This document shows positions 8,944 to 48,350 of a DNA stretch of 64,000 nucleotides, piece by piece (within the stretch, counting starts at the first letter, position 1; each line of letters opens with the position of its first letter). The stretch lies in the NCBI GenBank assembly GCA_037382365.1, contig JARRPZ010000003.1, positions 99 through 64,098 on the forward strand, written 5' to 3'. Position numbers and translations under genes: made by a program. Origin of the DNA: Gammaproteobacteria bacterium (lineage in GTDB: Bacteria > Pseudomonadota > Gammaproteobacteria > Steroidobacterales > Woeseiaceae). The notes under the pieces were generated by a model. The model worked only from the letters and a program-made list of their open reading frames with translations, was not told the DNA's origin and made no database searches.

Positions 8944-9022
8944 ACACACTGCCGGCTTACAGAGTCCAACTGATTGTGGCGCCCCCCAGCTGCCGCAATG
9001 ACGTGCGCGGAAAATAATCGAC

Positions 9023-9301
9023 GTGGCCAAATCCAGTCCAAAGAAGAGACGCCAGCCGAAGCTGGGTAATGAAAAATCGTTGAGCGATCACACCGAAGAA
9101 GCCCTCGAACAGTACTTCCGGAGCCTGAACGGACACCGGCCCGGCGATCTCTACGAGCTCGTGATGAGCGAGGTCGAAAGGCCGCTGTTCAGGACGGTCC
9201 TCGAATACACGGGCGGTAATCAGAGCGAAGCGGCCGTCATCCTCGGGATCAACCGGGGCACGCTGCGGAAGAAGCTCAAGGCGTACTCGCTGCTGCACTG
9301 A
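9023..9301 (+). CDS. fis: DNA-binding protein Fis
   Basis: The C-terminal HTH ([24 protein letters not shown]) and the preceding [14 protein letters not shown] are Fis-like. It follows dusB. GTG start. Confidence 0.85.
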
Positions 9302-28223: not shown

Positions 28224-29585
28224 TTACTGGGCCGCCCGCAGTCGCTGGCGGATCTCCTCACGTGCCTCACGCAGGATGGTGTCCCGGTCCAGGCTGCTCA
28301 GGATCTCGGAGACCACCCGCTTCGGGCCGCCGTCGCCCCACGACTTGCCCTGGGCGAGATACTGGTCGGCCACGCGCCCGACCACGTAGGTGCTGTAGTA
28401 GGCGATGGCGCCCTGTGCCCCTGCCGTGACCAGAGTCGAGAGCCCACCGGTCCCTACCTTCAGTGCGCTCGAGACGAAATGCACGGCCCAGACCGTGCCC
28501 ATCAGTGCGGCGGCCTCCGTCATGATCACCCGCACCAGGGTACCCGCCTCGCGACGCGCGATGGGCAGATCGTAGATCCGGGACAGATGGACGACCATGC
28601 CGATGTCGATGAAGGCCGCGGCGAACAGGTCCGCGACCGGCACCGGATTCAGGGCGACCGCCGCGCCCTTGGCGATGCAATAGGTACGCACGACTCTTTC
28701 CGCCACTTCCCGGCGCGCCTCGAGGATCCTCTGGCCGACCTTGTCCGTGAGATCGGCGGCGAAGATCGAGGCATTCAGCGCGGCGAGCGTCTTGCCCTCC
28801 CGTTGCAGGATCTCCCACAGCCTGAGCCGCAGCGCCTCCACGTCGGCCGGCGGCCGACGCAGCGTCTCGTGCTCTTCGCCATCCGGCTCCCGTGTGATCA
28901 CGGTCCGCGGCGCCGGATCGGCGGCAGCCGGGATCACGTTGCGGGGATCGATCACCCCGTCTACGCGCTCCCGCAGCGCCCGGAGCAGAGCCTGCCGCTC
29001 GTCATCGTCGTAGCGGTCGGCCTTGTTCAGGACGAGCACCACCGGGCGCCCCATGCGCACCACGGTCTGCAGGGCATCGAACTCCGTGGCCGTCATGTCG
29101 CCGTCGACCACGAACATGACGAGGTCGGCACGGCCCGCGACCTCGCGGGCCAACTCCTCGCGCTCCTCGCCCCCGGCCTCGTCGATGCCGGGCGTGTCGA
29201 TCACGTAGACGCCGCCGACCTCTTCCTCGCGCAGCGCATGCATGGAGGTGGTGCGGGTCTCGCCGTGCAGCGGGCTCACGGCGAAGAGATTCTCGCCGAT
29301 CAGGGCGTTGAGCAGCGACGACTTGCCCGTGCTGACCCGGCCCAGGGCGGCGATATGGACATGGCCGTGCTCGAGTTTCTCGAGCATCGCCTGCACCTGA
29401 CGATAGTCTTCGGACAGGGCCTCGCGGACGCCCGCGGGCAGACGCCGGTCGCCGAGCAACTCGCGCAGACTCTCGCGGGCGAGATCCAGGTGGTCCGCGC
29501 TCGCGTCGTCAGTCGTCGTCGAGTCGCGATCGTTCGCGGAGGGCGATCTGCGCCACCCGCCGAACACCCGTTTCCAGATATTCAC
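28224..29585 (-). CDS. P-loop GTPase fused to a DUF697-like C-terminal membrane-associated domain (paralog B)
   Basis: G1 is GRVSTGKSSLLNAL, G3 is DTPG and G4 is NKAD. A helical linker follows, then a hydrophobic Gly/Ala-rich C-terminal region resembling YcjF/DUF697. The GTG at 29585 would overlap paralog A by 77 nt; an alternative TTG lies at 29459. Confidence 0.75.
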   Translation of the reverse strand: MNIWKRVFGGWRRSPSANDRDSTTTDDASADHLDLARESLRELLGDRRLPAGVREALSEDYRQVQAMLEKLEHGHVHIAALGRVSTGKSSLLNALIGENLFAVSPLHGETRTTSMHALREEEVGGVYVIDTPGIDEAGGEEREELAREVAGRADLVMFVVDGDMTATEFDALQTVVRMGRPVVLVLNKADRYDDDERQALLRALRERVDGVIDPRNVIPAAADPAPRTVITREPDGEEHETLRRPPADVEALRLRLWEILQREGKTLAALNASIFAADLTDKVGQRILEARREVAERVVRTYCIAKGAAVALNPVPVADLFAAAFIDIGMVVHLSRIYDLPIARREAGTLVRVIMTEAAALMGTVWAVHFVSSALKVGTGGLSTLVTAGAQGAIAYYSTYVVGRVADQYLAQGKSWGDGGPKRVVSEILSSLDRDTILREAREEIRQRLRAAQ

Positions 29586-31005
29586 TCAGATTTTCCTCGA
29601 AACGCTCGGCTGCGGCCTCCGGCGAGAATCGTCCGTGGGCCGCGAGGGCCTGGACCAGGCTGCGGCCCAGGGCATCGAAGATCAGCCCATAGGCTACGGC
29701 ATGGACCAGTCCGCCCGCCACCGTGCCCACTCCCGGGAACGCTTTCAGCCCGTTGCCGGCGACGGCGAGGGTGAGCGGCAAGGCCCTGCCTACCCGGCTC
29801 TGGCTGAGATTCAGGAACTGCTCGACGTCCAGGTCGCGCGGCGAGATACCGTAGAGCGCGGACAGGGAGCGGGTCATGGCGGTGCCCAGGTAGCCCTGGA
29901 TCACGATGTCGGTGCCCGGGCTCACGGCGGCCAGCGCACCGATCACGGCCTTGCGGGTGTAGGAACGGATGATCTCCTCGGCGCGGCGGGCACGGTACGC
30001 CGTCTGCGCCGCCTGCAGCTTCTCGGTGGCCAGCGCGAAGACGGCGGCGTCGCGGCGTCTGTCGAGATCGTCCCGGTCGCGGGCGAGCTGCTCGTTCAGG
30101 GCGAGCACGAGTTCGGCGACGTCGGGTTCGCGGCGGCGGCGGCGCTCGACCAGCCGCCCCTCGCCGTCCTCCTCCAGCACCGTCTCGTCCTCCCGCGCGC
30201 TGACGCGCACGGCGACCGCCGGTTCCTTCGAATCCAGGTCCTGCAGGCGCGCCTGGAGCCGTTCCATGATCAGATGCAGGTCTTCCTTCGTATACTGATC
30301 GGTCTTGTTCAGCACCAGGATCGTCGGTTTGCCGACGGCCACCAGCTGCGCGAGCGCCTCGGCTTCGGGGCGGGCGAGATCACCGTCGCAGAGATAGAGG
30401 ACGACGTGGGCCCGCAGTGCCTCCTCCCGCGCCACGGCGTCGAACTCGGCGCCCACGCCGCCGGTACCCGGCACATCGACCAGCACGACTTCCCGGCCGT
30501 TCGGGCTCTGCCAGTGATACCGCCTGATCTCCCGCGTCGAGCCGCCGACCGGACTGGTCTCCACGTCGGCGCCCGGCACCAGGGCCCGGATCAGGGAACT
30601 CTTGCCGGTGCTGATCTCGCCGAATACCGCCAGGTGGATACGACCGCTCTCACGGCGTTCGGCGAGGTTCGTCAGTTCGTCGCGCGCCGCGGCGACATCG
30701 ATGCCGGCCGCCTCGGCCTCGCCGAGCCGCTCGGTCAGTGCTTCTTCGCTGAAGACGGGACGCTCTCTCTCCCCCTCGCCACTGCGCCTCGGCAACAGGA
30801 ATCGCCACACGATCCAGACCGCGCCGGCAGCGATGGCCACGAGCAGTGTGGTATAGCCGATCACGAGCCAGAGCGGCGCCTCGCGCAGGCGGTCCCACAC
30901 GTTCAGCGCCGACTCGGTGATGAACAGCATGGCCGCGATCACCGCCACCACGAGCAGTGTCACCGCCAGGATCAGCACGATCCGCAGGATGCGATCGACC
31001 TTCAT
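29509..31005 (-). CDS. Membrane-anchored P-loop GTPase fused to a DUF697-like domain (paralog A)
   Basis: There are two N-terminal TM helices (ILRIVLILAVTLLVVAVIAAMLFI; LWLVIGYTTLLVAIAAGAVWIVW). G1 is GEISTGKSSLIRAL, G3 is DVPG and G4 is NKTD. The C-terminal region (AVIGALAAVSPGTDIVIQGYL...) is DUF697-like. Confidence 0.75.
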   Translation of the reverse strand: MKVDRILRIVLILAVTLLVVAVIAAMLFITESALNVWDRLREAPLWLVIGYTTLLVAIAAGAVWIVWRFLLPRRSGEGERERPVFSEEALTERLGEAEAAGIDVAAARDELTNLAERRESGRIHLAVFGEISTGKSSLIRALVPGADVETSPVGGSTREIRRYHWQSPNGREVVLVDVPGTGGVGAEFDAVAREEALRAHVVLYLCDGDLARPEAEALAQLVAVGKPTILVLNKTDQYTKEDLHLIMERLQARLQDLDSKEPAVAVRVSAREDETVLEEDGEGRLVERRRRREPDVAELVLALNEQLARDRDDLDRRRDAAVFALATEKLQAAQTAYRARRAEEIIRSYTRKAVIGALAAVSPGTDIVIQGYLGTAMTRSLSALYGISPRDLDVEQFLNLSQSRVGRALPLTLAVAGNGLKAFPGVGTVAGGLVHAVAYGLIFDALGRSLVQALAAHGRFSPEAAAERFEENLSEYLETGVRRVAQIALRERSRLDDD

Positions 31006-36214: not shown

Positions 36215-37777
36215 TCAGCCCGCCGCGACGCGGGAGCCCGTGAATGCCGCGCGACTGATCCGGGAACCGCCCGGTTCCTGCACCAGCGAGTAAACCCGCA
36301 GCTCGTGCTGGTCCGCCGGACGGAAACCGAGCAGGATGCCCACCGACTGCCGCCCCAGCGCAGCCGCGGTATTCGTGGACGAGTTGCACCGAACGAACCA
36401 GGCGCCGTCACCGGGGACACCGAAGGCGCCCGCGCCCTCCAGACGCTGCAGGAATTCCGCCACCTGCCGCTCGACCGCGCGCCAGAGGACTCGCTCACTG
36501 CGACGAAACAACACCCAGCGCGTCGATCGTTCCACCCGCTGCAGGATGAAATGGGCGAGTCGCTCGGTGGTGAGCCGGGTGGCACCGCCCAGTACGCCGC
36601 CGGAGTACGTAACATCGCCTTGCGGCCGGACACGCCGATCGGCACCACGGCACAGCGCGATCACACCGTGCTGGCGGAGTACGCCAGCCTGGGGCGGCGT
36701 CACGTCGAGGACCGGGCGCAGAGTACGGCAGAACGGAGCGCCCTCTGCCGGCGGGAGCCAGACGTGCTCCGACTCGTCGTTACGAGCCAGCAGCCCGGCG
36801 AGCGCGCCACCAACCGCGATCTCGCCGTCCTCGGGGCGCCTCTCGTCGGTCATCCGCGGGAAATAGGTGACCAGATGCGGGCTGCGGAAGCCGTCCCTGC
36901 GCAGCCCGATCTCGAACTCGTCGCAGGAAGAGCACCCGGCCGGCGGGTCCACGACGAGGAACGCACCCCGCCGCCGGCAGAATCTCTCCGCCGCCATCAG
37001 AAATGCGGCTCCCGTGTCGCTGCCGGGACCGAGCGGCGGTGCGTAGAGCAGGCTGAAATGCTCCACGGCCTGCAGCGCGAAAAGGCCGCTGTAGCTGCGG
37101 GCCGATCCGATCAGGTCGTAATCCGTCAGAGGATGCCCGTCGGTGCCGGGGCGGTCGACCGGGACATAGGAGACCGACCGGTCCGCGCCGCGCGTGCGGG
37201 TCGCATCGGGCCGGCATTCCGGCAGGGTCCCTTCGACCCGCACGAGTCCGGAGCCGAGCAGGACATCACGGACATTCGATTCTTCGCCGTCCCGGCACGT
37301 CAGGCCGCGGAAAATCTCCTGGTCGTCGATCAGCCGGGTCTGCGGGGATATCCGCTGCAACGTCAGGTTGAAACGGCTGCCATCCGATCCCGGCCTGTCG
37401 TCCAGCCCGTCGTAGTCGACCGACGCGCGGAAGGTCTCGCTCGAGCCGGGATTCCTCGCTGTCAGGGTGAGGCCCTGATCACCCGCGGGCAGGGTCAGGG
37501 AGGCGCCGGTTGCACCGTTGGCGACCCGCACGATGACCGCGCGACGCCCGCCATGGGCGAAGAATTGTTCGACGGCCGAGCCGACGCCGCCGATCTGCCC
37601 GTGTCCACCGAAGCATCGCTTGAATTCTGCGAAGGAGGTGACGGTGACGGGGAGGTCGACCGGTCCGCACAGAGCGCGGCCTACGAATGCCGCGGTCGTG
37701 GCGGGTTCAGTCGGTATGGACTGATCCTCAGCCGGCATCTCCCCAACGGTGATGCCGGTGTATGCCACATCGTTCAA
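36215..37777 (-). CDS. Phage tail sheath family protein homolog (divergent, apparently orphan)
   Basis: The N-terminus AYTGITVGEM...TTAAFVGRALCGPVDLPVTVTSFAEFKRCFGG resembles the sheath N-terminus. Central segments are GLFALQAVEHFSLLYAPP and CRRRGAFLVVDPP. The C-terminus RWVLFRRSERVLWRAVERQVAEFLQRLEGAGAFG...AWFVRCNSSTN...LLGFRPADQHELRVYSLVQ resembles the sheath C-terminal domain. The start is uncertain (TTG 37777, GTG 37768 or ATG 37738); the track start at 37873 would overlap the divergent neighbour's start. Confidence 0.6.
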   Translation of the reverse strand: MNDVAYTGITVGEMPAEDQSIPTEPATTAAFVGRALCGPVDLPVTVTSFAEFKRCFGGHGQIGGVGSAVEQFFAHGGRRAVIVRVANGATGASLTLPAGDQGLTLTARNPGSSETFRASVDYDGLDDRPGSDGSRFNLTLQRISPQTRLIDDQEIFRGLTCRDGEESNVRDVLLGSGLVRVEGTLPECRPDATRTRGADRSVSYVPVDRPGTDGHPLTDYDLIGSARSYSGLFALQAVEHFSLLYAPPLGPGSDTGAAFLMAAERFCRRRGAFLVVDPPAGCSSCDEFEIGLRRDGFRSPHLVTYFPRMTDERRPEDGEIAVGGALAGLLARNDESEHVWLPPAEGAPFCRTLRPVLDVTPPQAGVLRQHGVIALCRGADRRVRPQGDVTYSGGVLGGATRLTTERLAHFILQRVERSTRWVLFRRSERVLWRAVERQVAEFLQRLEGAGAFGVPGDGAWFVRCNSSTNTAAALGRQSVGILLGFRPADQHELRVYSLVQEPGGSRISRAAFTGSRVAAG

Positions 37778-37871
37778 ATGAAGATCGCTCTTCGTTCTTC
37801 GCCGCCCCGTTTTCGATTCTACGGACTGTGGCGCAGAGTTACCATGCCCCCTGCGACCGACGGGAGACCCC

Positions 37872-38939
37872 ATGCAGACACCGCGCGGCTACAGCCACCT
37901 CCATCTCGCACATCCGACGCTGAGCCGATTGCCGCGCGAGTTCCTTGGCGACTACCCGACGCCGGTTCAACGTCGTCGGGACGGGCCACTTCGCCTGTGG
38001 ATCAAGCGTGACGATCTGAGCCATCCGATCTACGGAGGCAACAAGCTCCGTAAACTCGAATACCTGCTCGGCCAGGCGATATCGCGGGGGCATCGCAGCG
38101 TTGTGACCTTCGGTGCCGCCGGATCGAATCATGCACTGGCCACTGCCGTGCATGCGGCCGGCCTCGGACTGAGCTGCCTGTGCATACTCGGACCGCAGCC
38201 GCCGTCTCCCGCCGTTCGACGGACGCTGAATGCACATCTCGCCCTCGGCACGACGCTCGTTCCCTGGGAGCGCCGTCGATCGCAGCGCCTCGATCTGTAT
38301 CGCCGGCTCTTCCGCGGACCCGGGCCGGCACATCGTCCGTGGATCATCCCGATCGGCGGCTCCACCTGGCATGGCACCGTCGGATTCGTGAACGCGGCCT
38401 ACGAACTCGCCCGGCAGGTACGGGACGGGGAGCTGCCGGAGCCGGCGCTGATCTACCTGCCGCTGGGCACCATGGGCACGGTCGCCGGCCTTGCCACCGG
38501 TCTGGCCGCGACCGGTCTCGGGACCCGGGTCGTTGCCGTCCGGGTCGTCGTGGAGAAGATCGCGGACGAACGCCGCACACGGCGTCTCGGCGCCAAGACC
38601 GCCGAGCTGCTGCACCGTCTCGATCCCGGCTTCCCCGCTCTCGACCCCGGCGACCTGAATCTCGAGGTCCGGGACGAGTTCCTCGGCGAGGGCTATGCGG
38701 TCCCGACACCGGCCGCGCGCCGTGCGGTCGACTGGGCGGCACGGCATGCCGGGCTCAGGCTCGAGACGACCTATTCCGGGAAGGCCCTGTCGGCGTTGCT
38801 GGCCGACGCGGACGCCGGCCGGCTGGACCGTCGCGAGGTCCTGTTCTGGAATACCTACAATTCGGCGCCGCTCGCGATGCCGGACGATCACCCGATCCGG
38901 GAGGGACTGCCCGGGCCGCTGGCCCGCTACTTCAGCTGA
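37872..38939 (+). CDS. PLP-dependent ACC deaminase / D-cysteine desulfhydrase family protein
   Basis: YGGNKLRKLEYLL carries the PLP lysine. GAAGSNHA and the Gly-rich loop GTMGTVAGL also fit the fold-type II family. Confidence 0.8.
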   Translation: MQTPRGYSHLHLAHPTLSRLPREFLGDYPTPVQRRRDGPLRLWIKRDDLSHPIYGGNKLRKLEYLLGQAISRGHRSVVTFGAAGSNHALATAVHAAGLGLSCLCILGPQPPSPAVRRTLNAHLALGTTLVPWERRRSQRLDLYRRLFRGPGPAHRPWIIPIGGSTWHGTVGFVNAAYELARQVRDGELPEPALIYLPLGTMGTVAGLATGLAATGLGTRVVAVRVVVEKIADERRTRRLGAKTAELLHRLDPGFPALDPGDLNLEVRDEFLGEGYAVPTPAARRAVDWAARHAGLRLETTYSGKALSALLADADAGRLDRREVLFWNTYNSAPLAMPDDHPIREGLPGPLARYFS

Positions 38940-39874: not shown

Positions 39875-41032
39875 TCAGCGCGTGACCGGCTCGTCCGCCG
39901 GTTCGGCCGCGTCGGCTTCCACCATCTCGTCGAGCAGTTCGGCGACTTCCGCGAGGGTGGGCTCGTCCGGATCCGGTTCGACTACGTTGGCGACGAGGCG
40001 GATCCGCCGCGCCAGTTCGTTATCGTCGCGATAGAGTATCCGGATAGGGATGCCGCGCGCGTCCGCCGCGGCCCGGACCGCGTTGCGTCGCTCGTGCTCC
40101 TCCGCGAACGCTCCCGATTCCCGGCGGGCGCTCTGCATCAGCGCATCGAGCATCGCCGCGGGATCGCGCTGGTCATCCGCGAGCGGTGGATGCGCTTCGA
40201 AAAAGAACTCGCCGTCGCGCCGTCCGTACAGGACGGGCTGATTGACGATCCGTACCGGGGTCCCTCGATCCACGAGTTCGTACAGCGTCTCGATATTCTC
40301 CGGGTACAGGCGCACACAGCCGTGGCTCACCCGCATGCCGACGCCGTAGGGCTGGTTGGTGCCGTGGATAAGATAGCCGGGCATGTCCAGTTTCAGCACA
40401 CGGTGGCCGAGGGGATTGTCCGGTCCCGGTTCCACCACGGCCGGCAGCGGATCACCCGCCTCCGCGTGTTCCCGGCGCACCGAAGCCGGCGGGTACCACG
40501 TCGGGTCGCGCGCCTTGTCGATCACCTTCGTGCTGCCGGTCGGCGTCTCCCAGCCCTCGCGCCCGATACCGACCGGGTGCGTGATCACCGTCCGGCGCCC
40601 GTCTTCGCCGGCCGGCGGGAAGTAGAACAGTCGTTTCGCCGCGATGTTCAGCACGATGCCTTCGCGCGGCGCATCCGGCAGCACGAACTGGGTCGGCAGA
40701 GTGATCACCGTGCCCTCTCCCGGCAACCAGGGGTCCACGCCGGGATTCGCCTGCACCAGTTCGTCGTGGCCGAGCCCGTAGGCACGTGCGATGTCCGCAA
40801 AAGTATCCGACTCCCGGGACAGGATGACCTGGACTTCTCCGACGACGCCCTGCTCCGGCGACGCCAGCTCGTGCACGTCCGACGCGAGCGGCTCCTGCTC
40901 GACCAGCGTGTCGATCCAGCGTACCGGTTCCGCCGGTTCCTCCGGCTCGCCGCTCGTGGCACAGCCCGCCAGCACTGCCGCCGCGGTGGCCAGGCATGAC
41001 AGTCGGCCGATCTGGTTGGCAATCATGGACAC
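39875..41032 (-). CDS. L,D-transpeptidase lipoprotein (LysM + YkuD domains)
   Basis: It has a lipobox (LAGCAT), a LysM-like segment (DTFADIARAYGLGHDELVQANPG), the YkuD catalytic motif HGTNQPYGVGMRVSHGCVRL and an ErfK/YcfS-like C-terminal extension. Confidence 0.88.
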   Translation of the reverse strand: MSMIANQIGRLSCLATAAAVLAGCATSGEPEEPAEPVRWIDTLVEQEPLASDVHELASPEQGVVGEVQVILSRESDTFADIARAYGLGHDELVQANPGVDPWLPGEGTVITLPTQFVLPDAPREGIVLNIAAKRLFYFPPAGEDGRRTVITHPVGIGREGWETPTGSTKVIDKARDPTWYPPASVRREHAEAGDPLPAVVEPGPDNPLGHRVLKLDMPGYLIHGTNQPYGVGMRVSHGCVRLYPENIETLYELVDRGTPVRIVNQPVLYGRRDGEFFFEAHPPLADDQRDPAAMLDALMQSARRESGAFAEEHERRNAVRAAADARGIPIRILYRDDNELARRIRLVANVVEPDPDEPTLAEVAELLDEMVEADAAEPADEPVTR

Positions 41033-41863: not shown

Positions 41864-42594
41864 CGCTCCATCCGCCCGGCGATCCATATCCAGCCTTCGC
41901 GGACCGCCAGATCGGCATCTTCGGGCGCCGCGCAGGCACCGCTCAGAAAATCCACGCCGGCCAGCCCGGCCAGCGCGGCATCGAGAATGTCGGCATTGGC
42001 GACCATCGCATCCTGGTGGCGACCCGCCGCCAGTTCGCCGGCAAGTCCCCCGAGGATCTGGCGACGGAGCGCCTGCGCGGCGGCAGGCTTGTACCGGCTC
42101 GCGGGCAGACCCCGCACCAGCAGCACCGCCGCGGGATAGACCTCGATCGCCGCGCTCGCTTCGATCGCCGGTCGCCAGGCCAGCGGTATCGTCTCGCCAC
42201 GCCGCTGGCGCAGTTCCGAGAGCAGCGCCAGGGCGGACGCGGCGGTACGGGCGATACGATCCGCGCCGACTTCCAGCGGCTGCTTGCCGAGTCGCGCCCG
42301 CACGAACTCGTCCGTCCTGCGGCGGAACAGCCGGTTCGCTTCCGGAACCGCCAGCGCGTCACCGGCTCGATGGGGCCCCAGACTACGGCCGAGCGCCATG
42401 GGCCAGCCGAGCGGGGCATCGAGACAGAACAGGGCCGGCTCGCGCCCGGCGGCGGCGTCGGCGATCGCCGCGACCGACCCGCCCGCTTCGCCCAGTGTCG
42501 CCATCGTCACCCTCGCAAGCTGCCCGTCCCAATCGAGCGCGACCACACCCGTCTTGCGCGGATCGGTGGCGCAGTCGATACCGACGATGCGCAT
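41860..42594 (-). CDS. DUF429-like protein (predicted RNase H-fold nuclease)
   Basis: The N-terminus MRIVGIDCATDPRKTGVVAL...FCLDAPLGWP resembles DUF429/RNase-H-like families, and later conserved acidic residues are present (ADILDAAL). The assignment is from memory of the family pattern only. Confidence 0.5.
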   Translation of the reverse strand: MRIVGIDCATDPRKTGVVALDWDGQLARVTMATLGEAGGSVAAIADAAAGREPALFCLDAPLGWPMALGRSLGPHRAGDALAVPEANRLFRRRTDEFVRARLGKQPLEVGADRIARTAASALALLSELRQRRGETIPLAWRPAIEASAAIEVYPAAVLLVRGLPASRYKPAAAQALRRQILGGLAGELAAGRHQDAMVANADILDAALAGLAGVDFLSGACAAPEDADLAVREGWIWIAGRMER

Positions 42595-42596
42595 CG

Positions 42597-43286
42597 CTAG
42601 CGCGGCGCCGCCGGGAGGGCGACGACCGCGTCCGGCGCGATGGCGTACACCCGATCCCCCGCCCCGGGACGCACGTTCCTGGCACCGGTGAAGCTGCCGA
42701 AAGCCGGCAGCACGGCGTGGCGCTCGAGGAACCAGAAGACCGGCAGGCGGATGCTGTCGCCGCCGCCCCGCAGCCGCATCGCCGGATGCAGGTGACCGCC
42801 GAGGCCGTAGCCGCGAGGATCCGGCTCCGGTTCGTGCTGCAGGACGAAGGGGCGCTCCAGGCGGGATTCCGGATACCAGCGGATGCGTCGATCCATGCGC
42901 TGGCGCGTCGCGGGGCGGTCGTGATTGCCCGCGACGATGCTGACCTCGGCAGGGATGCCGTGGAGCCAGTCACCGATGTGATCGAGCCATCGGTCCTCGT
43001 CGCCCGGCGGGGCATGCGTGAAATCGCCGAGCACGGCGAGTTCCTCCGCACCGAACGAGCGCACCAGCGTGTCGAGCCGGCCCAGGTCCGATTCGGTAGC
43101 GCCGCCGGGCACGGCGAGACCGGCTCGCCCGAAGGCCCATTCCTTGCCGAGATGCACATCGGCCACCAGCAGCATGCGCCGCCGGGGCCAGTACAGGGCG
43201 CGGTCGTGATGCAGCAACAGCTCCTCTCCCGCGCACTCGATGGCGAGCTGGCCTCCGTCCGCCGTGGCGCCGCACGCGACGCTCAC
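42597..43286 (-). CDS. pdeM: Ligase-associated DNA damage response endonuclease PdeM (metallophosphoesterase)
   Basis: Calcineurin-like motifs are present (VADVHLGK, GDFTH, GNHD, GHLHP). The GTG at 43286 overlaps the helicase TGA (GTGA). The upstream part of track ORF 42597..43850 overlaps the helicase gene and is rejected. Confidence 0.8.
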   Translation of the reverse strand: MSVACGATADGGQLAIECAGEELLLHHDRALYWPRRRMLLVADVHLGKEWAFGRAGLAVPGGATESDLGRLDTLVRSFGAEELAVLGDFTHAPPGDEDRWLDHIGDWLHGIPAEVSIVAGNHDRPATRQRMDRRIRWYPESRLERPFVLQHEPEPDPRGYGLGGHLHPAMRLRGGGDSIRLPVFWFLERHAVLPAFGSFTGARNVRPGAGDRVYAIAPDAVVALPAAPR

Positions 43287-45748
43287 GCGCTCTTCCTCCG
43301 CCGGCTTGCGGAGCGCTCCAGCGAGGCCGCCATGCGTACGACCCGCTCGCGCCAGGATTCGCTGGACATGATCTGGCTCTGCAGGCGCTCCGCCCACAGC
43401 GGGAAGGCCAGCGGCGTCAGTCGCTCGGGACGCTCCAGGACGATGCGGCGCCCGGCGATCGATTCGAGCGCGCCACGCATGCGGCGGGTCTCGAGCTGAT
43501 TCTCCAGCACCTCGCGCCTGGCCTGATCGAGCAGCAGGTTGCCGCTGTCGTAGCGCTCGAGCACGTCGAAGATGAGGCCGCTCGACGCCTGCACCTGACG
43601 GGTGGACTTGCCCCGCCCCGGATAGCCCTGGAACACGAGGCCGGCGATCCGGGCGATATCGCGGAACCGGCGTTTCGCGATCTCGGAAGTGTTCATGCAG
43701 GCGAGGAGATCGCCTTCCAGATCGCCGGGCACCAGCACCTCGCGCAGCCGTGCCTCGTCCACGGCCGGCGGTTCGCGGGACAGCAGCTCGAGTCCGTAAT
43801 CGTTCGCGGACAGCGTATAGGTCGCCGATGCGTCCCGGGACAGCCGCCATGCGAGCAGGGTCGCGAGGCCCTCGTGGACCAGGCGCCCGGCGAAGGGATA
43901 CAGGAACAGACTCCAGCCCTCGCGGGTCCGGGTGAGCTCGGCCAGCAGCTCGTCCGGCACCGGCAGCCGCGACCAGCGCTTCTGCAGATCCAGCAGACCG
44001 GCGAGGGCCGTCACTTCGGCCGGCTGCCCGGTCGCGGACTGTGCCGCCTCGAGGACCTCGAGCACGCTGTCGGCCAGTTCGGTCGACAGCGGCATCCGGC
44101 CGCCCTGCCAGCGCGGCACGGTGCGCTTCCCGCGCTTCGCGCGCCGGACGTAGGCGGTCATGTCCCGCACCTGCGCGAGTTCCACCAGGCGGCCGGCGAA
44201 CAGGAACCGGTCCCCGCGTTCCAGGCGGGAGATGAACGACTCCTCGATCGTGCCCAGCGACCCCCCGGTCAGCCAGCGGATATTCATCGCCGTGTCACTC
44301 GCTATGGTGCCGATGCCCATGCGGTGGCGCTGGCCGATGCCCCGGTCGGTCACCCGGTAGCGCCCGTCGATTTCCTCGACGCGGCGGTACCGGGGATAGC
44401 CCTGCAATGCCTGGCCGCCCCGCGTGATGAAATCCATGACCCACTGCCATTCGGCGTCGGTGAGCCCGGCGAAAGCATGCGTGGTGCTCACCTCGTCGCG
44501 CATGGCCCCGGCCTCGAAGCCACCGCCCAGCGCCACGGTGACGAGATGCTGGGCCAGCACGTCCAGGGAGCGCGTGAGCGGTCGGCGGGCCTCGATGCGG
44601 CCCTGTTCGGCGGCTCGCCGGGCGGCCGCGATCTCGACCAGTTCGAAGGCATGGGTGGGCACGCACAGCACTTCCGAGACGGCGCCGGGACGGTGGCCGC
44701 TGCGCCCGGCGCGCTGCAGCAGCCGTGCCACCCCTTTCGGACTGCCGACCTGCAGCACGCGGTCGACGGGACTGAAATCCACCCCCAGGTCGAGGGAGGA
44801 GGTGCAGACGACGCAGATCAGCTCGCCGGCCCGCAGCGCATCCTCGATCCGCTTCCGGAGCTTGCGATCGATGGAGCCGTGATGCAGTGCGATACGCCCC
44901 ACCCAGTCGGGCCGCTCGTCCACCAGCGCCTGGAACCACAGTTCGGCCTGGGAGCGGGTATTGGTGAACAGCAGCGTGGAATTGGCCGCTGCGATCGCTT
45001 CCACGACCGCCGGCAGGAGCTTGATTCCCAGGTGGCCGGCCCACGGAAAGCGCTCGAGGGTCCGGGGCAGGACCGAGCGGATGCGGACGCTCTTCGGAGC
45101 CGAGCCGCGCACCAGCCGGCCCCGGCCCCGCGGGCCGAGCAGAACGTCCCTGGCCTCTTCCAGATTGGCGAGCGTCGCCGACAATCCCCACGTCTTCAAC
45201 GCGGGAGCGATGCCGCGGAGACGGGAAAGGCAGAGTTCCAGCTGCACGCCCCGCTTGGTGCCGAGAAGCTCGTGCCACTCGTCCACCACGACGGCCTGCA
45301 ACCCGCGGAACCACTGCGCGCCGTCCGCATAGCTCAACAGCACGGACAGGCTCTCGGGCGTGGTGATCAGCGCTTCCGGCGGCTGCCGGCGCTGGCGGGC
45401 GCGAACCGATTGCGAGGTATCGCCGCTGCGGACCTCCACTCGCCAGCCGCTGCCGAGTGCCTCCGCCGCCTCGGCCAGGTTTTCACGCGTGTCCACGGCG
45501 AGCGCCCGCAGCGGCGTGATCCACAGGATGCGCAGCCCGGCCCGGGACACGCCCTCCTCCGCTTCCGCCGCGGCCTCGGCCAGCGGCCCGAGCCATGCCG
45601 CCAGCGACTTCCCGCTGCCGGTGGGAGAATGGATGAGGCCGGATTCGCCGGCGAGGTAAGCCTCGCAGGCCTCCCTCTGGAAGTCGAACAGCGCCCGCCC
45701 GCCGGCGGCGAGCCACTCGTCCAACCGGGTCTCGAAGGAGCGGTTCAC
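43283..45748 (-). CDS. Ligase-associated DNA damage response DEXH-box helicase (Lhr-like)
   Basis: Motif I is SPTGSGKS and motif II is DEWH (VVVDEWHELLG). QRAGRSGH and a long Lhr-type C-terminal region follow. GTG start overlaps the ligase stop. Confidence 0.9.
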   Translation of the reverse strand: MNRSFETRLDEWLAAGGRALFDFQREACEAYLAGESGLIHSPTGSGKSLAAWLGPLAEAAAEAEEGVSRAGLRILWITPLRALAVDTRENLAEAAEALGSGWRVEVRSGDTSQSVRARQRRQPPEALITTPESLSVLLSYADGAQWFRGLQAVVVDEWHELLGTKRGVQLELCLSRLRGIAPALKTWGLSATLANLEEARDVLLGPRGRGRLVRGSAPKSVRIRSVLPRTLERFPWAGHLGIKLLPAVVEAIAAANSTLLFTNTRSQAELWFQALVDERPDWVGRIALHHGSIDRKLRKRIEDALRAGELICVVCTSSLDLGVDFSPVDRVLQVGSPKGVARLLQRAGRSGHRPGAVSEVLCVPTHAFELVEIAAARRAAEQGRIEARRPLTRSLDVLAQHLVTVALGGGFEAGAMRDEVSTTHAFAGLTDAEWQWVMDFITRGGQALQGYPRYRRVEEIDGRYRVTDRGIGQRHRMGIGTIASDTAMNIRWLTGGSLGTIEESFISRLERGDRFLFAGRLVELAQVRDMTAYVRRAKRGKRTVPRWQGGRMPLSTELADSVLEVLEAAQSATGQPAEVTALAGLLDLQKRWSRLPVPDELLAELTRTREGWSLFLYPFAGRLVHEGLATLLAWRLSRDASATYTLSANDYGLELLSREPPAVDEARLREVLVPGDLEGDLLACMNTSEIAKRRFRDIARIAGLVFQGYPGRGKSTRQVQASSGLIFDVLERYDSGNLLLDQARREVLENQLETRRMRGALESIAGRRIVLERPERLTPLAFPLWAERLQSQIMSSESWRERVVRMAASLERSASRRRKSA

Positions 45749-47346
45749 GGCGCCGGCACCAGCGCCTGCACGCTCTCTATGTCGTCGGCGTCTCGTATCG
45801 CGAGATCCCTCCGCCAGCGGGCGATGCGCGGGAAGCGCAGGGCCACCCCGGACTTGTGACGGCTGGACGCGTTAATGCCCTCGAACGCGATCTCGAAGAC
45901 GTGCTCCGGCCGCACCGAACGCACGGGCCCGAAGCGCTCGACGGTATTGCGGCGTATCCATCGATCAAGCTCGCGGATCTCGCCGTTGTCCAGGCCGGAG
46001 TAGGCCTTCGCGATGGGCACGAGGTCGTCGTCGCGCCAGACCGCGAAAGTATAGTCCGTGTAAAGATTCGCCCGCCGCCCGTGTCCGGGCTGTGCATAGA
46101 TCATGACCGCGTCGACGGTGTGCGGCTCCACTTTCCACTTCCACCACAGGCCCCGTTTGCGACCGGTGCCGTAGGGGGAATCCAGGGCCTTCAGCATCAG
46201 GCCCTCGACGCGCCGCTCCCGGGACTCCTCGCGCAGCGCCGCGTAGGCGGACCAGTCGGCGGCGGACAACAGTGGCGACAAGCGCAGGGCCCCGACGTCG
46301 CCCGGCAGGACCTCGACCAGCGCCGCTCGCCGCTCTGCCATCGGCCGCTGGCGGATGTCTTCCCCGCCGTGCTCCAGGAGATCGTAGGCCAGGAAAACGA
46401 CCGGGACTTCGGCCAGCAGCTTCGCGCCGACCCGCTTGCGGCCGATGCGGCGCTGCAGGGCGCCGAAATCCATCACGCCCGACCGCGCATCCCAGGCCAG
46501 GAGTTCACCGTCCAGCACCGTGCCGTCGCCAAGGGCTGCCGACGCATCGCGCACTTCCGGGAATCGCTCGGTGATCAGGTCCTCGCCTCGCGACCAGAGG
46601 AAGGTGCTGCCGCCGCGCCGCACCAGCTGGGCGCGGATGCCGTCCCATTTCCATTCGACCTGCCAGCCCTCGGGAGCACCGAGGTCGGTCGGTATCGACT
46701 GTCCCTCCAGCGGGGCGGCGAGACAGAACGGGTAGGGACGCGAGATATCCGCCTCGCCGTCGTCCGGCGACAGCAGCGCCTTGAAGAATCGAGGGCTCGG
46801 CTCCCAGTGTCCCATGAGCCGGTGCAGGATCACCGGCCGCGGCAGATCGGCCGTCTCGGCCAGCGCCCGGGCGACGAGCGTCTGGGACACGCCGACTCGC
46901 AACGCGCCGGTCAGCAGCTTGTTCAGCAGGTAGCTCCGCTCGTAGTCCAGGGTCGCCCACCACCGCTTTACGCGCTCCCCCCGGTCCTCGATGTCGAGAT
47001 CCTTCAGCGGCAGGATCTCCTGCTCCAGCCACCCGGCGAGCGAGCGATCGTCGGCCGGCGCGGGCTGCGCCGTATCCGTGAGCAGGGCGATCGTCTCCGC
47101 GAGGTCGCCGACCGTGGCGTAGGTGTCGTCCACCAGCCAGTCCGGCAGATCGACGCACTCGTACAGCCACTGCCGCAGCCGGGCCGGACCGACCAGCCGC
47201 TTGATCCGTCGGCCCGACAGGAAATACACGGCCCAGGCCGCGTCTGCGGGCGGCGCATTCGAGAAATAGCGGACCATCGCCGCCACCTTGAGATTGGTGG
47301 AGGTGGTCTGGTCGAGTTCCTGGTAGAGCCGGCTGAAACTACGCAC
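45745..47346 (-). CDS. ATP-dependent DNA ligase
   Basis: It has the adenylation motif I EWKWDGIR, later ligase motifs (EGLMLK, WWKWK) and an OB-fold C-terminus. Confidence 0.9.
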   Translation of the reverse strand: MRSFSRLYQELDQTTSTNLKVAAMVRYFSNAPPADAAWAVYFLSGRRIKRLVGPARLRQWLYECVDLPDWLVDDTYATVGDLAETIALLTDTAQPAPADDRSLAGWLEQEILPLKDLDIEDRGERVKRWWATLDYERSYLLNKLLTGALRVGVSQTLVARALAETADLPRPVILHRLMGHWEPSPRFFKALLSPDDGEADISRPYPFCLAAPLEGQSIPTDLGAPEGWQVEWKWDGIRAQLVRRGGSTFLWSRGEDLITERFPEVRDASAALGDGTVLDGELLAWDARSGVMDFGALQRRIGRKRVGAKLLAEVPVVFLAYDLLEHGGEDIRQRPMAERRAALVEVLPGDVGALRLSPLLSAADWSAYAALREESRERRVEGLMLKALDSPYGTGRKRGLWWKWKVEPHTVDAVMIYAQPGHGRRANLYTDYTFAVWRDDDLVPIAKAYSGLDNGEIRELDRWIRRNTVERFGPVRSVRPEHVFEIAFEGINASSRHKSGVALRFPRIARWRRDLAIRDADDIESVQALVPAP

Positions 47347-47357
47347 GGCGGCGTCTC

Positions 47358-48350
47358 CTACTGGTCATCGCCGCTGCCCTCGTAGGCCGTCTCGAGCGCC
47401 GACGCGTCGACACCGTGCTCGCGCAGCAGGCGCACCAGGGCATCGGTGTGACCGTGGGTCGCGAGCACACGGGAAGCACCCGTCTCGTCGATCGTGCGCA
47501 GCAGCGAGGGCCAGTCCGCGTGGTCCGACAGCACGAACCCCCGGTCGTAGCCACGGCGGCGGCGCTGACCCCGGATGCGCATCCAGCCCGAACAGAAGCC
47601 GGTGCTTGCCGAACGGAATCGGCGCATCCAGGTGCTGCCCGCGGCGCCCGGCGGCGCGATGACGAGTTCACCGGCATAATCGCGCTGCTGCCGAAGATCC
47701 ACCTTCTCGGTCGGCAGCATCTCGACGCCGGCCTCCCGGTAGACCTCCACCAGCGCCTCGACGGCCCCGTGCACGAACACCGTTGCATCCGTGTACGCCA
47801 TCAATTCCGCGAGCACCCGCTGTGCCTTGCCGAGTGCATAGCAGAAGAGCACCGACGGGCGGCCCTGTTCCCGGTTGCCCTGCCACCAGTCGTGGATCTC
47901 CCGGGCGGTCTCGCTGCCCGGCCGCCAGCGGTAGACCGGCAGCGCGAAGGTCGCCTCGGTGATGAACGTATCGCAGGGCACGACCTCGAACGGCGCGCAG
48001 GTCGGATCCGGATCCCGCTTGTAGTCGCCGGAGACGACCCAGACGCCCTGCGCCGACTCGATCCGGATCTGCGCGGAGCCGAGCACGTGACCGGCGGGAT
48101 GGAAAGAGACGACGGTGTCTTCGAAGCTCAGGCGCTCGCCCCAGTCGACCGGCCGGATATCCGCGGCGTCGCCGAGACGTTTCCTGAGCAGGCCGACGCC
48201 GGGCGCCGCCGCGTAGTACACGTCCGAGCCCGGGCGGGCATGGTCGGCATGGGCATGGGTGACGAGGGCCGTTGCGCTCGGGCGCCAGGGATCGATGTGG
48301 AAGCCGCCGGCCGCGCAGGCGAGGCCGGTGTCGGTCGCGCGGATCAGCAC
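47358..48350 (-). CDS. Ligase-associated DNA damage response exonuclease (metallo-beta-lactamase / beta-CASP fold)
   Basis: The MBL motif THAHADHA and later H/D motifs are present, and it is the first gene of the exonuclease-ligase-helicase-PdeM set. GTG start 8 nt after the M48 gene stop. Confidence 0.85.
   Translation of the reverse strand: MLIRATDTGLACAAGGFHIDPWRPSATALVTHAHADHARPGSDVYYAAAPGVGLLRKRLGDAADIRPVDWGERLSFEDTVVSFHPAGHVLGSAQIRIESAQGVWVVSGDYKRDPDPTCAPFEVVPCDTFITEATFALPVYRWRPGSETAREIHDWWQGNREQGRPSVLFCYALGKAQRVLAELMAYTDATVFVHGAVEALVEVYREAGVEMLPTEKVDLRQQRDYAGELVIAPPGAAGSTWMRRFRSASTGFCSGWMRIRGQRRRRGYDRGFVLSDHADWPSLLRTIDETGASRVLATHGHTDALVRLLREHGVDASALETAYEGSGDDQ

Follow-up and report, generated by a model that had tools for sequence, protein, structure and literature searches.

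Sheath proteins are machine parts: wrapped around a tube, they hold energy in store until it is released from the baseplate. What, then, might a sheath-like gene be doing by itself among housekeeping genes? The question is raised by a gene within the 64-kb window analysed here (the whole 64,000-nucleotide stretch of DNA), which a first-pass annotation made from the sequence described as an orphan, divergent homologue of contractile-tail sheaths.

The gene and its sheath fold

The minus-strand reading frame described in that annotation exists, and it contains every peptide quoted there. In the ORF listing it spans 36215..37873(-) and encodes 552 aa. The start assumed for it, the ATG at 37873, was misplaced; this ATG overlaps the start codon of the divergent PALP gene at 37872. 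The low GC3 of the first ~40 codons of the long frame (~0.62), together with a −10-like box, a GGAG site and a TTG start common to the orthologues, identifies the TTG at 37777 as the true start. This TTG is kept in 54 of 66 orthologous loci, and a TAGAAT-type box lies ~36-40 nt from the start codon, at near-fixed spacing, in ~50 of the 66. The resulting protein is 100% identical to the 520-aa database gene call (P0001; MEJ2601862.1), whose NCBI product name is 'hypothetical protein'. The gene and its surroundings comprise the following features.

36215..37777, minus strand: orphan sheath-like CDS, 520 aa; TTG start at 37777-37775, stop at 36217-36215
37778..37871, no strand: divergent intergenic region common to the sheath-like gene and the PLP-enzyme gene
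37821-37816, minus strand: putative −10-like TAGAAT in the intergenic region
37792-37788, minus strand: putative weak ribosome-binding site, AAGAG
37872..38939, plus strand: PLP-enzyme gene of the D-cysteine desulfhydrase / ACC-deaminase family, divergent neighbour (Pfam PALP, 2.8e-34)
39875..41032, minus strand: YkuD-type L,D-transpeptidase gene, upstream on the same strand (Pfam YkuD, 3.9e-23; LdtE-like in NCBIfam)

A generic scan of the intergenic region for sigma-70 promoters and terminators found nothing, a result that is uninformative in such high-GC DNA. A candidate 5′-UTR hairpin, ATCTGAC/GTCAGAT, enclosing the ribosome-binding site, showed 88.6% pairing on pair counting, with covariation not above that of shuffles. 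RNAalifold did not recover this hairpin, and the window's own leader is without it.

The proposed sheath homology proved real. The first-pass annotation had recommended hmmscan against the Pfam sheath models, and these fail: Phage_sheath_1C (PF17482) scored 12.1 bits (E = 0.21), below its gathering cut-off of 26.9, and Phage_sheath_1 (PF04984) was not reported. A precomputed Pfam match is likewise absent for most members of the clade described below. NCBIfam gave no match to the sheath-like protein, and PADLOC-DB v2 gave none to it, to the PALP enzyme or to the YkuD protein. As these three resources provide no usable family, the homology call rests on PHROGs, the PDB and the fold. PHROG 23, 'tail sheath', matched the protein at 1.3e-19, and phmmer aligned the PDB sheaths 9ezm, 8bl4 and 8bky over its full length (4.6e-24 to 1e-20); a family profile matched 8bky at 1.3e-47. 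The AlphaFold model (pLDDT 89.3, pTM 0.89) shows the predicted product with a full three-domain sheath fold. Its best Foldseek match in the PDB is the contractile injection system (CIS) sheath 9ezm (2.2e-28), followed by T4 gp18, Lin1278, S. coelicolor CIS, PVC and AFP sheaths, and the search against BFVD reached 8.6e-29. The top structural matches in PDB and BFVD were sheaths without exception. Searches with Pfam, NCBIfam and Foldseek revealed neither an enzyme family nor a ligand-binding domain.

Genomic setting and related loci

The gene is indeed an orphan within the 64-kb window. Pfam searches of the 42 other genes returned housekeeping functions only and no integrase, the window contains no tRNAs and no Rfam matches, and no repeats are present at the locus. 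HMMs for the tube, T4_baseplate-like, Pvc16-like (Pvc16_N) and AAA ATPase proteins of canonical relatives had no matches in the window or in the clade loci. The tube model was built from the tube protein of the nearest canonical relatives. Once cleaned, it gave 0 matches at E <= 10 in the window and 94 related loci (+/-10 kb around matches; 1.6 Mb, six frames), and as a positive control it recovered the tube in 69/69 canonical loci and 8/8 viral loci. An initial version had matched four loci (L089, L093, L094 and L064). Those matches were artefacts of a contaminated training cluster, which held 35 alternate-frame shadow ORFs lying inside the 3′ ends of sheath genes, and the cleaned model does not reproduce them. 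De novo clustering of neighbouring genes in the best 80 of 538 loci yielded no baseplate, spike, cap or AAA+ ATPase family. Elsewhere in the window, a weak match to a sigma-54 activator HMM at 9002-9298 is a Fis-like ORF after dusB rather than a CIS regulator.

The gene is not singular, as it had first seemed, but a member of a large conserved clade. A database search with the protein returned 1376 matches and a genome scan gave 538 candidate loci; the best 80 of these belong to Woeseiaceae, Steroidobacteraceae or related MAGs, plus Lentisalinibacter isolates. In Woeseiales and Steroidobacterales, two orders whose members live in sediment and soil, genes of the clade are found at a single syntenic place on the chromosome, and representatives at 442-567 bits show the same synteny. 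Within the best 80 of 538 loci, the most persistent syntenic neighbour is the YkuD gene, upstream in 67-69 (and also upstream in L090, L091 and L094). The PALP gene is divergent and adjoining in 56 of the 80 and absent in Steroidobacteraceae-type loci, and an oxoprolinase gene is nearby in 22. NCBIfam D-Cys desulfhydrase family matches to the PLP enzyme fell below their cut-offs. A larger conserved block also takes in LipA-like radical SAM, S49, M48 and MTase genes along with YkuD. Because the YkuD/PALP synteny is part of this block, it supports vertical inheritance and not a functional link; YkuD or PALP as functional partners are unsupported, the more so as PALP is missing from some loci.

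The first-pass annotation had proposed comparing the intactness, synteny and dN/dS of orthologues. Besides the shared position in two orders, this comparison gave an intact ORF of 498-737 aa in 80/80 loci (the best 80 of 538) and a dN/dS of 0.15 (0.147 against an 83% identical orthologue, 0.245 against a 70% one), with values of 0.056-0.242 for neighbouring genes. Divergence of the sheath-like protein tracks that of its neighbours (83% identity vs 78-95%). The A/T-rich third positions noted earlier are weakly borne out, GC3 being 0.806 against 0.840 +/- 0.030 and ninth lowest among 43 genes. At z = -1.1, however, the gene is no compositional outlier. On a neighbour-joining, midpoint-rooted tree the clade separates from canonical representatives, and its monophyly therefore depends on rooting within canonical sheaths. 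The nearest canonical relatives are CIS sheaths with a tube gene immediately after them.

Constraint within the protein

Conservation was mapped onto the segments below.

37697..37777, minus strand: N-terminal arm, residues 1-27, with GITVGE (PGVYVEE in canonical sheaths)
37133..37507, minus strand: beta-rich insertion, approximately domain 3, residues 91-215; approximate bounds, inferred from secondary structure
36275..36817, minus strand: inner core domain, approximately domain 1, residues 321-501, the conserved C-terminal region of sheaths, here under relaxed constraint; approximate bounds
36743..36766, minus strand: HVWLPPAE, degenerate counterpart of GVWKAPAG, residues 338-345, from alignment with 148 representatives
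36608..36634, minus strand: RVRPQGDVT, degenerate counterpart of VWGARTL, residues 382-390, in a beta-hairpin (E372-377 / E383-386)
36218..36274, minus strand: clade-specific C-terminal tail, residues 502-520

The altered motifs singled out in the first-pass annotation are real and hold clade-wide. Of the 148 aligned representatives, none above ~360 bits has GVWKAPAG or VWGARTL, and nearly every lower-scoring one does; W384, G385, R387 and T388 show little or no variation in the canonical alignment (A2). The inner domain that carries both motifs has lost 0.5 to 1.3 bits of relative information against canonical representatives (-0.5 to -1.3), and its dN is 0.163, compared with 0.075-0.076 in domains 2b and 3. 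Conservation of the beta-rich insertion, whose DSSP strands fall at residues 93-182 in the AlphaFold model, exceeds that of canonical relatives by +0.6 to +1.4 bits. The clade-specific invariants are E114, Q141, R142, Q153, Y220 and G256, and the first four occur in 85-98% of clade representatives versus 5-11% of canonical ones. Constraint has thus moved, with domain 1 relaxed and domains 2 and 3 tighter. This is the reverse of canonical CIS sheaths, in which domains 1 and 2 are conserved and domain 3 is the most variable (PMC11566945).

The N-terminal arm and C-terminal tail are conserved even though they lie outside the monomer fold. The arm is disordered in the monomer model (pLDDT 34-72), yet its residues 6-16 reach 3.30 bits, above the mean of 2.72 for the whole protein. 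G8, I9, T10, V11 and E13 are nearly invariant in the clade, and the arm follows the canonical strand pattern (GITVxE vs PGVYVEE). In assembled sheaths the N-arm strand joins the beta-sheet of a neighbouring subunit, and N-arm and C-tail both have a role in the sheath mesh (PMC6088184). Residues 502-514 of the tail carry 2.98 bits, and block 501-520 holds 1.05 bits in the clade vs 0.31 in canonical representatives. Alignments of PDB sheaths end at profile position 499-502, and the listed canonical representatives end at ~500.

A probable role apart from contraction

Among the three readings offered in the first-pass annotation (a decayed remnant, a sheath belonging to a locus now split, or a sheath fold exapted to act by itself), the exapted gene is favoured and the decayed remnant is rejected. 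The favoured reading draws on intact frames in 80/80 loci, a dN/dS of 0.15, fixed synteny, a conserved promoter and TTG, clade invariants and the lack of a nearby tube. The product is probably a contractile-sheath protein that has been domesticated and does its work with neither tube nor baseplate. A relaxed tube-facing domain combined with newly constrained outer domains is the pattern expected if the protein took a different role, and it suggests that this lone sheath-fold gene now does a different cellular job.

One course of events would account for these features. An ancestor of the two orders may have kept a CIS sheath gene after loss of the other components. Constraint on the tube-facing, contraction-driving inner domain would then have relaxed, allowing GVWKAPAG and VWGARTL to decay, while the protein would have kept its N-terminal arm, gained the C-terminal tail and come to carry new invariant polar residues in its outer domains. 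Subunits could still associate by the arm-exchange 'mesh' common to all sheaths, giving a static, tube-less tubule or oligomer in the cytoplasm, much like polysheath. Its outward-facing domains 2 and 3 would bind a new cellular partner, and the conserved TTG start may keep the protein level low. Judged from sequence, the working form of the domesticated sheath is possibly such a static polymer, with the conserved arms as the only ground for inferring polymerisation. We put forward more tentatively the fuller version of this idea: a natural tube-less sheath polymer, formed by arm exchange as a non-contractile nanotube or cytoskeleton-like scaffold with the outer domains as binding platform, which may have been a core structure since the common ancestor of Woeseiales and Steroidobacterales and would be the first stand-alone exapted sheath.

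Sheaths are able to polymerise without a tube (PMC6088184, PMC6357053), and some, such as the diffocin CD1363 sheath, are monomeric on their own (PMC6088184). Here the acceptor region lies within the relaxed domain 1, whose beta-hairpin has lost its motif, so assembly may be impaired. The protein might instead act alone as a soluble monomer or small oligomer, with a newly conserved polar patch on domains 2 and 3 that binds a ligand or protein or performs catalysis, and with the N-arm binding a partner or folding back on the protein. This alternative would fit the concentration of clade-specific invariant polar residues at residues 114-256, the relaxed inner domain with its lost hairpin motif, and the precedent of sheath proteins that fail to self-assemble (PMC6088184). 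We nevertheless regard it as rather unlikely: the N-arm is nearly invariant and retains the canonical strand pattern, the Pfam, NCBIfam and Foldseek searches revealed no enzyme or ligand-binding family, and all of the top structural matches are sheaths.

Explanations that keep the gene tied to a contractile or mobile element fare worse. A working CIS sheath encoded apart from its tube, baseplate and spike genes, with these in another part of the genome, would account for the retained N-arm and for an intact gene under selection. Such a split locus is improbable, given that two near-invariant motifs are lost and the inner domain has become the least constrained part of the protein. In addition, the tube gene follows the sheath in 69/69 nearest canonical and 8/8 viral loci, the gene sits within a housekeeping synteny block conserved over two orders and, as weak evidence, two comparative-genomics papers on Woeseiales and Woeseiaceae mention no contractile system. 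Loss of the surrounding cluster, degenerate motifs and failing Pfam models are also what a prophage, tailocin or CIS remnant on its way to becoming a pseudogene would leave behind, but that origin is contradicted by 80/80 intact frames (best 80 of 538), by a dN/dS of 0.15 equal to that of housekeeping neighbours, by 43 invariant columns over 114 sequences, and by a conserved promoter and start alongside newly gained invariants; we give it almost no weight. Recent arrival as cargo of a mobile element or anti-phage defence island is just as hard to credit. A GC3 slightly under the window mean and a distant canonical-motif relative (P0201, at L089) that adjoins a TIR-domain protein speak for it; synteny in two orders and co-divergence with the neighbours contradict it, and there is no integrase, tRNA, repeat, GC3 deviation beyond z = -1.1 or PADLOC match to go with it. 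Moreover, no clade member is found on any of 2.9 million viral contigs.

The favoured reading, a domesticated stand-alone sheath, matters beyond this locus. A sheath kept alone under purifying selection in two orders implies that the fold can function apart from contraction and injection. In the searchable literature no description was found of an orphan or stand-alone sheath, or of a CIS in Steroidobacter or Woeseiaceae. The gene escapes the present Pfam and NCBIfam models, and genome screens that use sheath homologues as CIS markers would miscount the genomes that carry it. In marine sediments, Woeseiales account for 1-22% of 16S sequences (PMC7082342). Cultured carriers exist (Lentisalinibacter), which makes the question directly testable, and the protein offers a natural starting point for self-assembling protein nanotubes.

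Among known systems, the closest are CIS sheaths (Cis2; Afp2-4; Pvc2-4; PF04984, PF17482), which have the same three-domain fold, align over the full length, follow the same N-arm pattern and share the blocks AAFVGxAxxGP, FFxxGG, DPP, YxP and an R..W..F helix; the nearest canonical representatives are ~30% identical to the sheath-like protein. Unlike them, the clade has no adjoining tube, T4_baseplate-like, Pvc16-like or AAA+ ATPase genes, has lost GVWKAPAG/VWGARTL, shows a relaxed domain 1 and tighter domains 2/3, bears an extra C-terminal tail and falls below Pfam gathering thresholds. Its gene is chromosomal and vertically inherited, whereas canonical CIS sheaths belong to mobile or patchily distributed clusters. 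The closest solved structures are the cytoplasmic and T6SS-like CIS sheaths of Streptomyces coelicolor (8bky, 8bl4, 9gtp) and Halogeometricum borinquense (9ezm), which resemble the protein in sequence (family profile, 1.3e-47), structure (Foldseek 2e-28, TM ~0.7), length and three-domain organisation. Those are contractile sheaths, built up from a baseplate along a Cis1 tube; their partner genes are absent here, and their conservation pattern (PMC11566945) is reversed in the clade.

Polysheaths (T4 gp18, phiKZ gp29, FV3 gp053) come nearest to the proposed assembly, as sheath protein alone forms stable hollow tubules by arm exchange. They are, however, by-products or in-vitro products of tube-requiring proteins, whereas the tube-less state predicted here would be the native one, favoured by selection. 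The T6SS TssB/TssC sheath is of phage type and was taken over by bacteria to serve as a cellular machine encoded on the chromosome, but it keeps an Hcp tube, baseplate, spike, ClpV recycling and a two-protein sheath, none of which is found here. Encapsulins, nanocompartments with the HK97 capsid fold, differ in fold and assembly and have cargo genes next door, whereas no cargo or partner has been identified at the sheath-like gene. The parallel is conceptual, in that cells have kept a phage structural fold for a non-viral role once the remaining virion genes had gone; if the polymer reading is true, the clade would be to sheaths what encapsulins are to capsids.

Sheath ancestry and gene start

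The minus-strand ORF at 36215..37873 (552 aa) that the first-pass annotation read as a contractile-sheath homologue is present in the window, with all of the quoted peptides inside it. The Pfam search proposed as a check did not bear the reading out: Phage_sheath_1C reached only 12.1 bits (E = 0.21), short of the 26.9-bit cut-off, and the protein had no match in NCBIfam. Despite this failure, homology to sheaths is settled by other evidence. The protein matches PHROG 23 'tail sheath' (1.3e-19) and, over its full length, solved CIS sheaths (9ezm at 4.6e-24; 8bl4 and 8bky at ~1e-20); with the family profile as query, 8bky scores 1.3e-47. An AlphaFold model from a 114-sequence alignment (pLDDT 89.3, pTM 0.89) was put to the Foldseek comparison also proposed earlier, and it matched sheaths exclusively. 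In the PDB the model came closest to the CIS sheath of Halogeometricum borinquense (2.2e-28), and T4 gp18, Lin1278 and the Streptomyces coelicolor CIS, PVC and AFP sheaths came next; the top match among predicted viral structures scored 8.6e-29. Phages are remote in sequence, with matches in 8 of 50,697 phage records and a best identity of 23%. By fold and ancestry the protein belongs to the sheath superfamily, yet it lacks the features that define a working contractile module.

The NCBI entry (MEJ2601862.1) is named 'hypothetical protein', as are other members of the clade of stand-alone relatives, some of which carry the automatic IMG label 'phage tail sheath protein FI'. Neither PADLOC nor NCBIfam nor Pfam has a family that covers the clade, and the literature searched describes neither a stand-alone sheath nor contractile systems for the clade's lineages.

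The ATG start at 37873 gave way to a TTG at 37777. GC3 over the initial ~40 codons of the 552-aa ORF is non-coding (~0.62), and the public gene call (P0001, 520 aa, 100% identical) starts at the TTG. Start codons could be assigned in 66 orthologous loci: TTG in 54, GTG in 10 and ATG in 2. These loci share an upstream layout in which a TAGAAT-type -10 box lies at near-fixed spacing, ~36-40 nt from the start, together with a GGAG ribosome-binding site. Because the public call and this common layout agree, the features of the gene are taken as follows.

36215..37777, minus strand: coding sequence of the sheath-like protein
37778-37871: conserved upstream region with -10 box, ribosome-binding site and non-ATG start (compared across loci L008-L087)

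In three orthologue comparisons, dS was low in codons 1-27 (window 37697-37777), at 0.11-0.32 versus 0.4-1.2 in other gene segments, which hints at constraint on the 5' end of the mRNA. The conserved non-ATG start suggests translation that is deliberately low or regulated; the conserved TTG and depressed early dS, taken together, likewise suggest controlled, probably low, translation. As a separate observation, a 5'-UTR ATCTGAC is complementary to GTCAGAT, which spans the G of the start codon plus codons 2-3; the two segments flank the Shine-Dalgarno sequence (-32 to +24 around the start codon). It occurs in L013, L016, L020, L041 and ~30 other Woeseiaceae-type loci and is absent from the window. 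Pairing is possible in 88.6% of cells versus 24-46% in slid controls; covariation was no higher than in shuffles, and the RNAalifold prediction lacks the stem.

A vertically inherited clade in a housekeeping neighbourhood

The sheath-like protein belongs to a large clade that has been inherited vertically. In the protein database, 1376 relatives score E <= 1e-5; orthologues at 64-83% identity give way to a plateau at ~40%, made up of ~517-aa proteins. A scan of species-representative genomes found at least 538 candidate loci. The best 80 of these all come from Woeseiaceae, Steroidobacteraceae (the two families represent two orders) or unclassified gammaproteobacterial MAGs, together with two cultured species, Lentisalinibacter sediminis and L. 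orientalis. Of these best 80 loci, 67-69 have a YkuD L,D-transpeptidase gene on the same strand, upstream of the sheath-like gene. In 56 of the 80, the Woeseiaceae type, a PLP-enzyme gene sits between YkuD and the sheath-like gene, divergent from the latter; it is missing from Steroidobacteraceae-type loci. A convergent oxoprolinase gene follows downstream in 22 of the 80. Synteny reaches further, to radical SAM, S49, M48 and MTase genes, and therefore speaks for a stable place in the chromosome, not for a specific functional link. Four relatives spread along the score gradient (P0127, P0136, P0160 and P0150) share the neighbourhood, and P0150 retains part of the motif signature.

Frameshifted orthologues with dN/dS near 1, the outcome named in advance as evidence against the reading, did not appear. 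The ORF is intact in 80/80 loci (498-737 aa), and dN/dS against the 83% orthologue is 0.147, with window neighbours at 0.056-0.242 in the same comparison. Amino-acid identity also tracks the neighbours (83% for the sheath-like protein, 78-95% for them).

Within the window, the description of the gene as an orphan holds: by Pfam and NCBIfam, 42 other genes of the window show housekeeping functions only. They include DsbD, AccBC, PrmA, DusB, PurH, PurD, MoeA, Rho, a DEAD helicase, PlsB, GH15, glucokinase, two slr1306-type GTPases, an SSF transporter, oxoprolinase, the PLP enzyme, SapC, YkuD, a ligase-associated repair block (exonuclease, ligase, Lhr), M48 and S49 peptidases, a radical SAM lipoyl-synthase-like protein and a Bat/VWA operon. 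A tRNA search of the window agreed with the earlier reading in finding none, and Rfam gave no matches there. The suggested A/T enrichment at third positions is not significant, since GC3 is 0.806 against 0.840 +/- 0.030 (z = -1.1).

Other features of the window
6163-7950, plus strand: 595-aa ORF with an N-terminal zinc ribbon (CxxC...CxxC) and a C-terminal membrane-anchored domain
9023-9301, plus strand: 92-aa ORF directly 3' of the Dus gene, matching the HTH end of sigma-54 activators (E = 6.5e-4)
28224-31005, minus strand: tandem slr1306-family GTPases (MMR_HSR1, with DUF697 on one)
42594-48350: ligase-associated DNA-damage-response block (exonuclease TIGR04122, ATP-dependent ligase, Lhr helicase, probably a Metallophos gene, DUF429)

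The 595-aa ORF contains a very long acidic Glu/Pro-rich repeat region with many EPEP units, because of which the GC3 gene filter left it out. The 92-aa ORF and the Dus gene most likely form the usual dusB-fis pair. The tandem GTPases recur in 34 of 80 related loci, 5-6 kb from the sheath-like gene, probably as conserved synteny only. The ligase-associated block separates MTase/YkuD from M48, S49 and radical SAM, which adjoin in most other Woeseiaceae loci, and is probably a lineage-specific insertion.

An arrangement absent from the window was seen in ~20 Woeseiaceae loci (L013, L015, L017, L021, L027-L030, L038, L039, L041-L043, L056, L074, L077, L081). An ECF-type sigma factor gene lies ~60 bp 3' of the sheath-like gene on the same strand, followed by genes for a putative anti-sigma protein, a small secreted protein, DUF1800 and DUF1501. 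An operon link to envelope signalling is possible.

Canonical relatives and the missing tube

An exhaustive profile search returned 15,821 representatives at E <= 0.001 (2,422 at E <= 1e-30), with continuously declining scores. Among the top 148, which were aligned, all proteins above ~360 bits lack the canonical GVWKAPAG and VWGARTL motifs and nearly all below carry both. In a distance-based neighbour-joining tree, 39 canonical-motif tips form one group apart from 67 motif-lacking proteins. The nearest canonical relatives supplied a control set of 80 loci. There, the sheath gene is followed by genes for a gp19-type tube (PF06841), a T4_baseplate-like protein, a Pvc16_N protein and an AAA+ ATPase, and the clade's nearest relatives are therefore bona fide contractile injection systems.

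Early tube-HMM matches were spurious, arising from alternate-frame shadow ORFs in the training set, and the HMM was cleaned. The cleaned model found a tube in all 69 of the 69 control loci in which 600 nt or more follow the sheath gene and in 8/8 relatives on IMG/VR viral contigs, six of which (including all at >=31% identity) carry both canonical motifs. Across the window and 94 related loci (1.6 Mb of locus sequence in six frames), it had zero matches even at E <= 10.

One canonical-motif protein also lacks a tube by the cleaned HMM: P0201 (519 aa; L089:8001-11153; JGI 3300007643, Ga0104854_10125877), whose gene is directly followed by that of a 514-aa TIR_2/ThsB-like protein (PADLOC PDLC00420, 2.9e-20). 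Here a TIR effector may be the partner of a sheath that lacks a tube independently of the clade, the sole such case among the loci examined.

Shifted constraint and a proposed role

In published sheath structures, domains 1 and 2 are inward-facing, contraction-driving and conserved, and domain 3 is the most variable (PMC11566945). Relative to the nearest canonical representatives, the clade reverses the conservation pattern. Residues 81-280 are more conserved than in canonical sheaths (+0.5 to +1.4 bits), while residues 301-500, the inner core, are less so (-0.3 to -1.3 bits). In the comparison with the 83% orthologue, domain 1 has a dN of 0.163, and domains 2b and 3 have 0.075-0.076. Six clade-invariant residues (E114, Q141, R142, Q153, Y220 and G256) occur in 85-98% of the clade's representatives and 0-11% of the canonical ones. 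The N-terminal arm, PGVYVEE in canonical sheaths, reads GITVxE in the clade and is nearly invariant, with 3.30 bits where the whole protein averages 2.72, although the monomer model leaves it disordered (pLDDT 34-72). The C-terminal tail found in this clade is conserved as well. Once a sheath has assembled, its domain-1 beta-sheet is extended by the N-terminal strand and by the C-terminal strand of a neighbour, which gives the 'interwoven mesh' (PMC6088184).

From the losses of motifs and constraint, we infer that the sheath-like protein would no longer grip a tube or switch between extended and contracted states. Self-association would continue through the retained arms, and the outer-domain gains may form a new binding surface. 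The main rival is a non-polymer role, because the diffocin sheath remains monomeric (PMC6088184). A tube-less polymer is physically plausible by analogy, since the sheath proteins of T4, phiKZ and FV3 form polysheaths without tube or baseplate (PMC6088184, PMC6357053).
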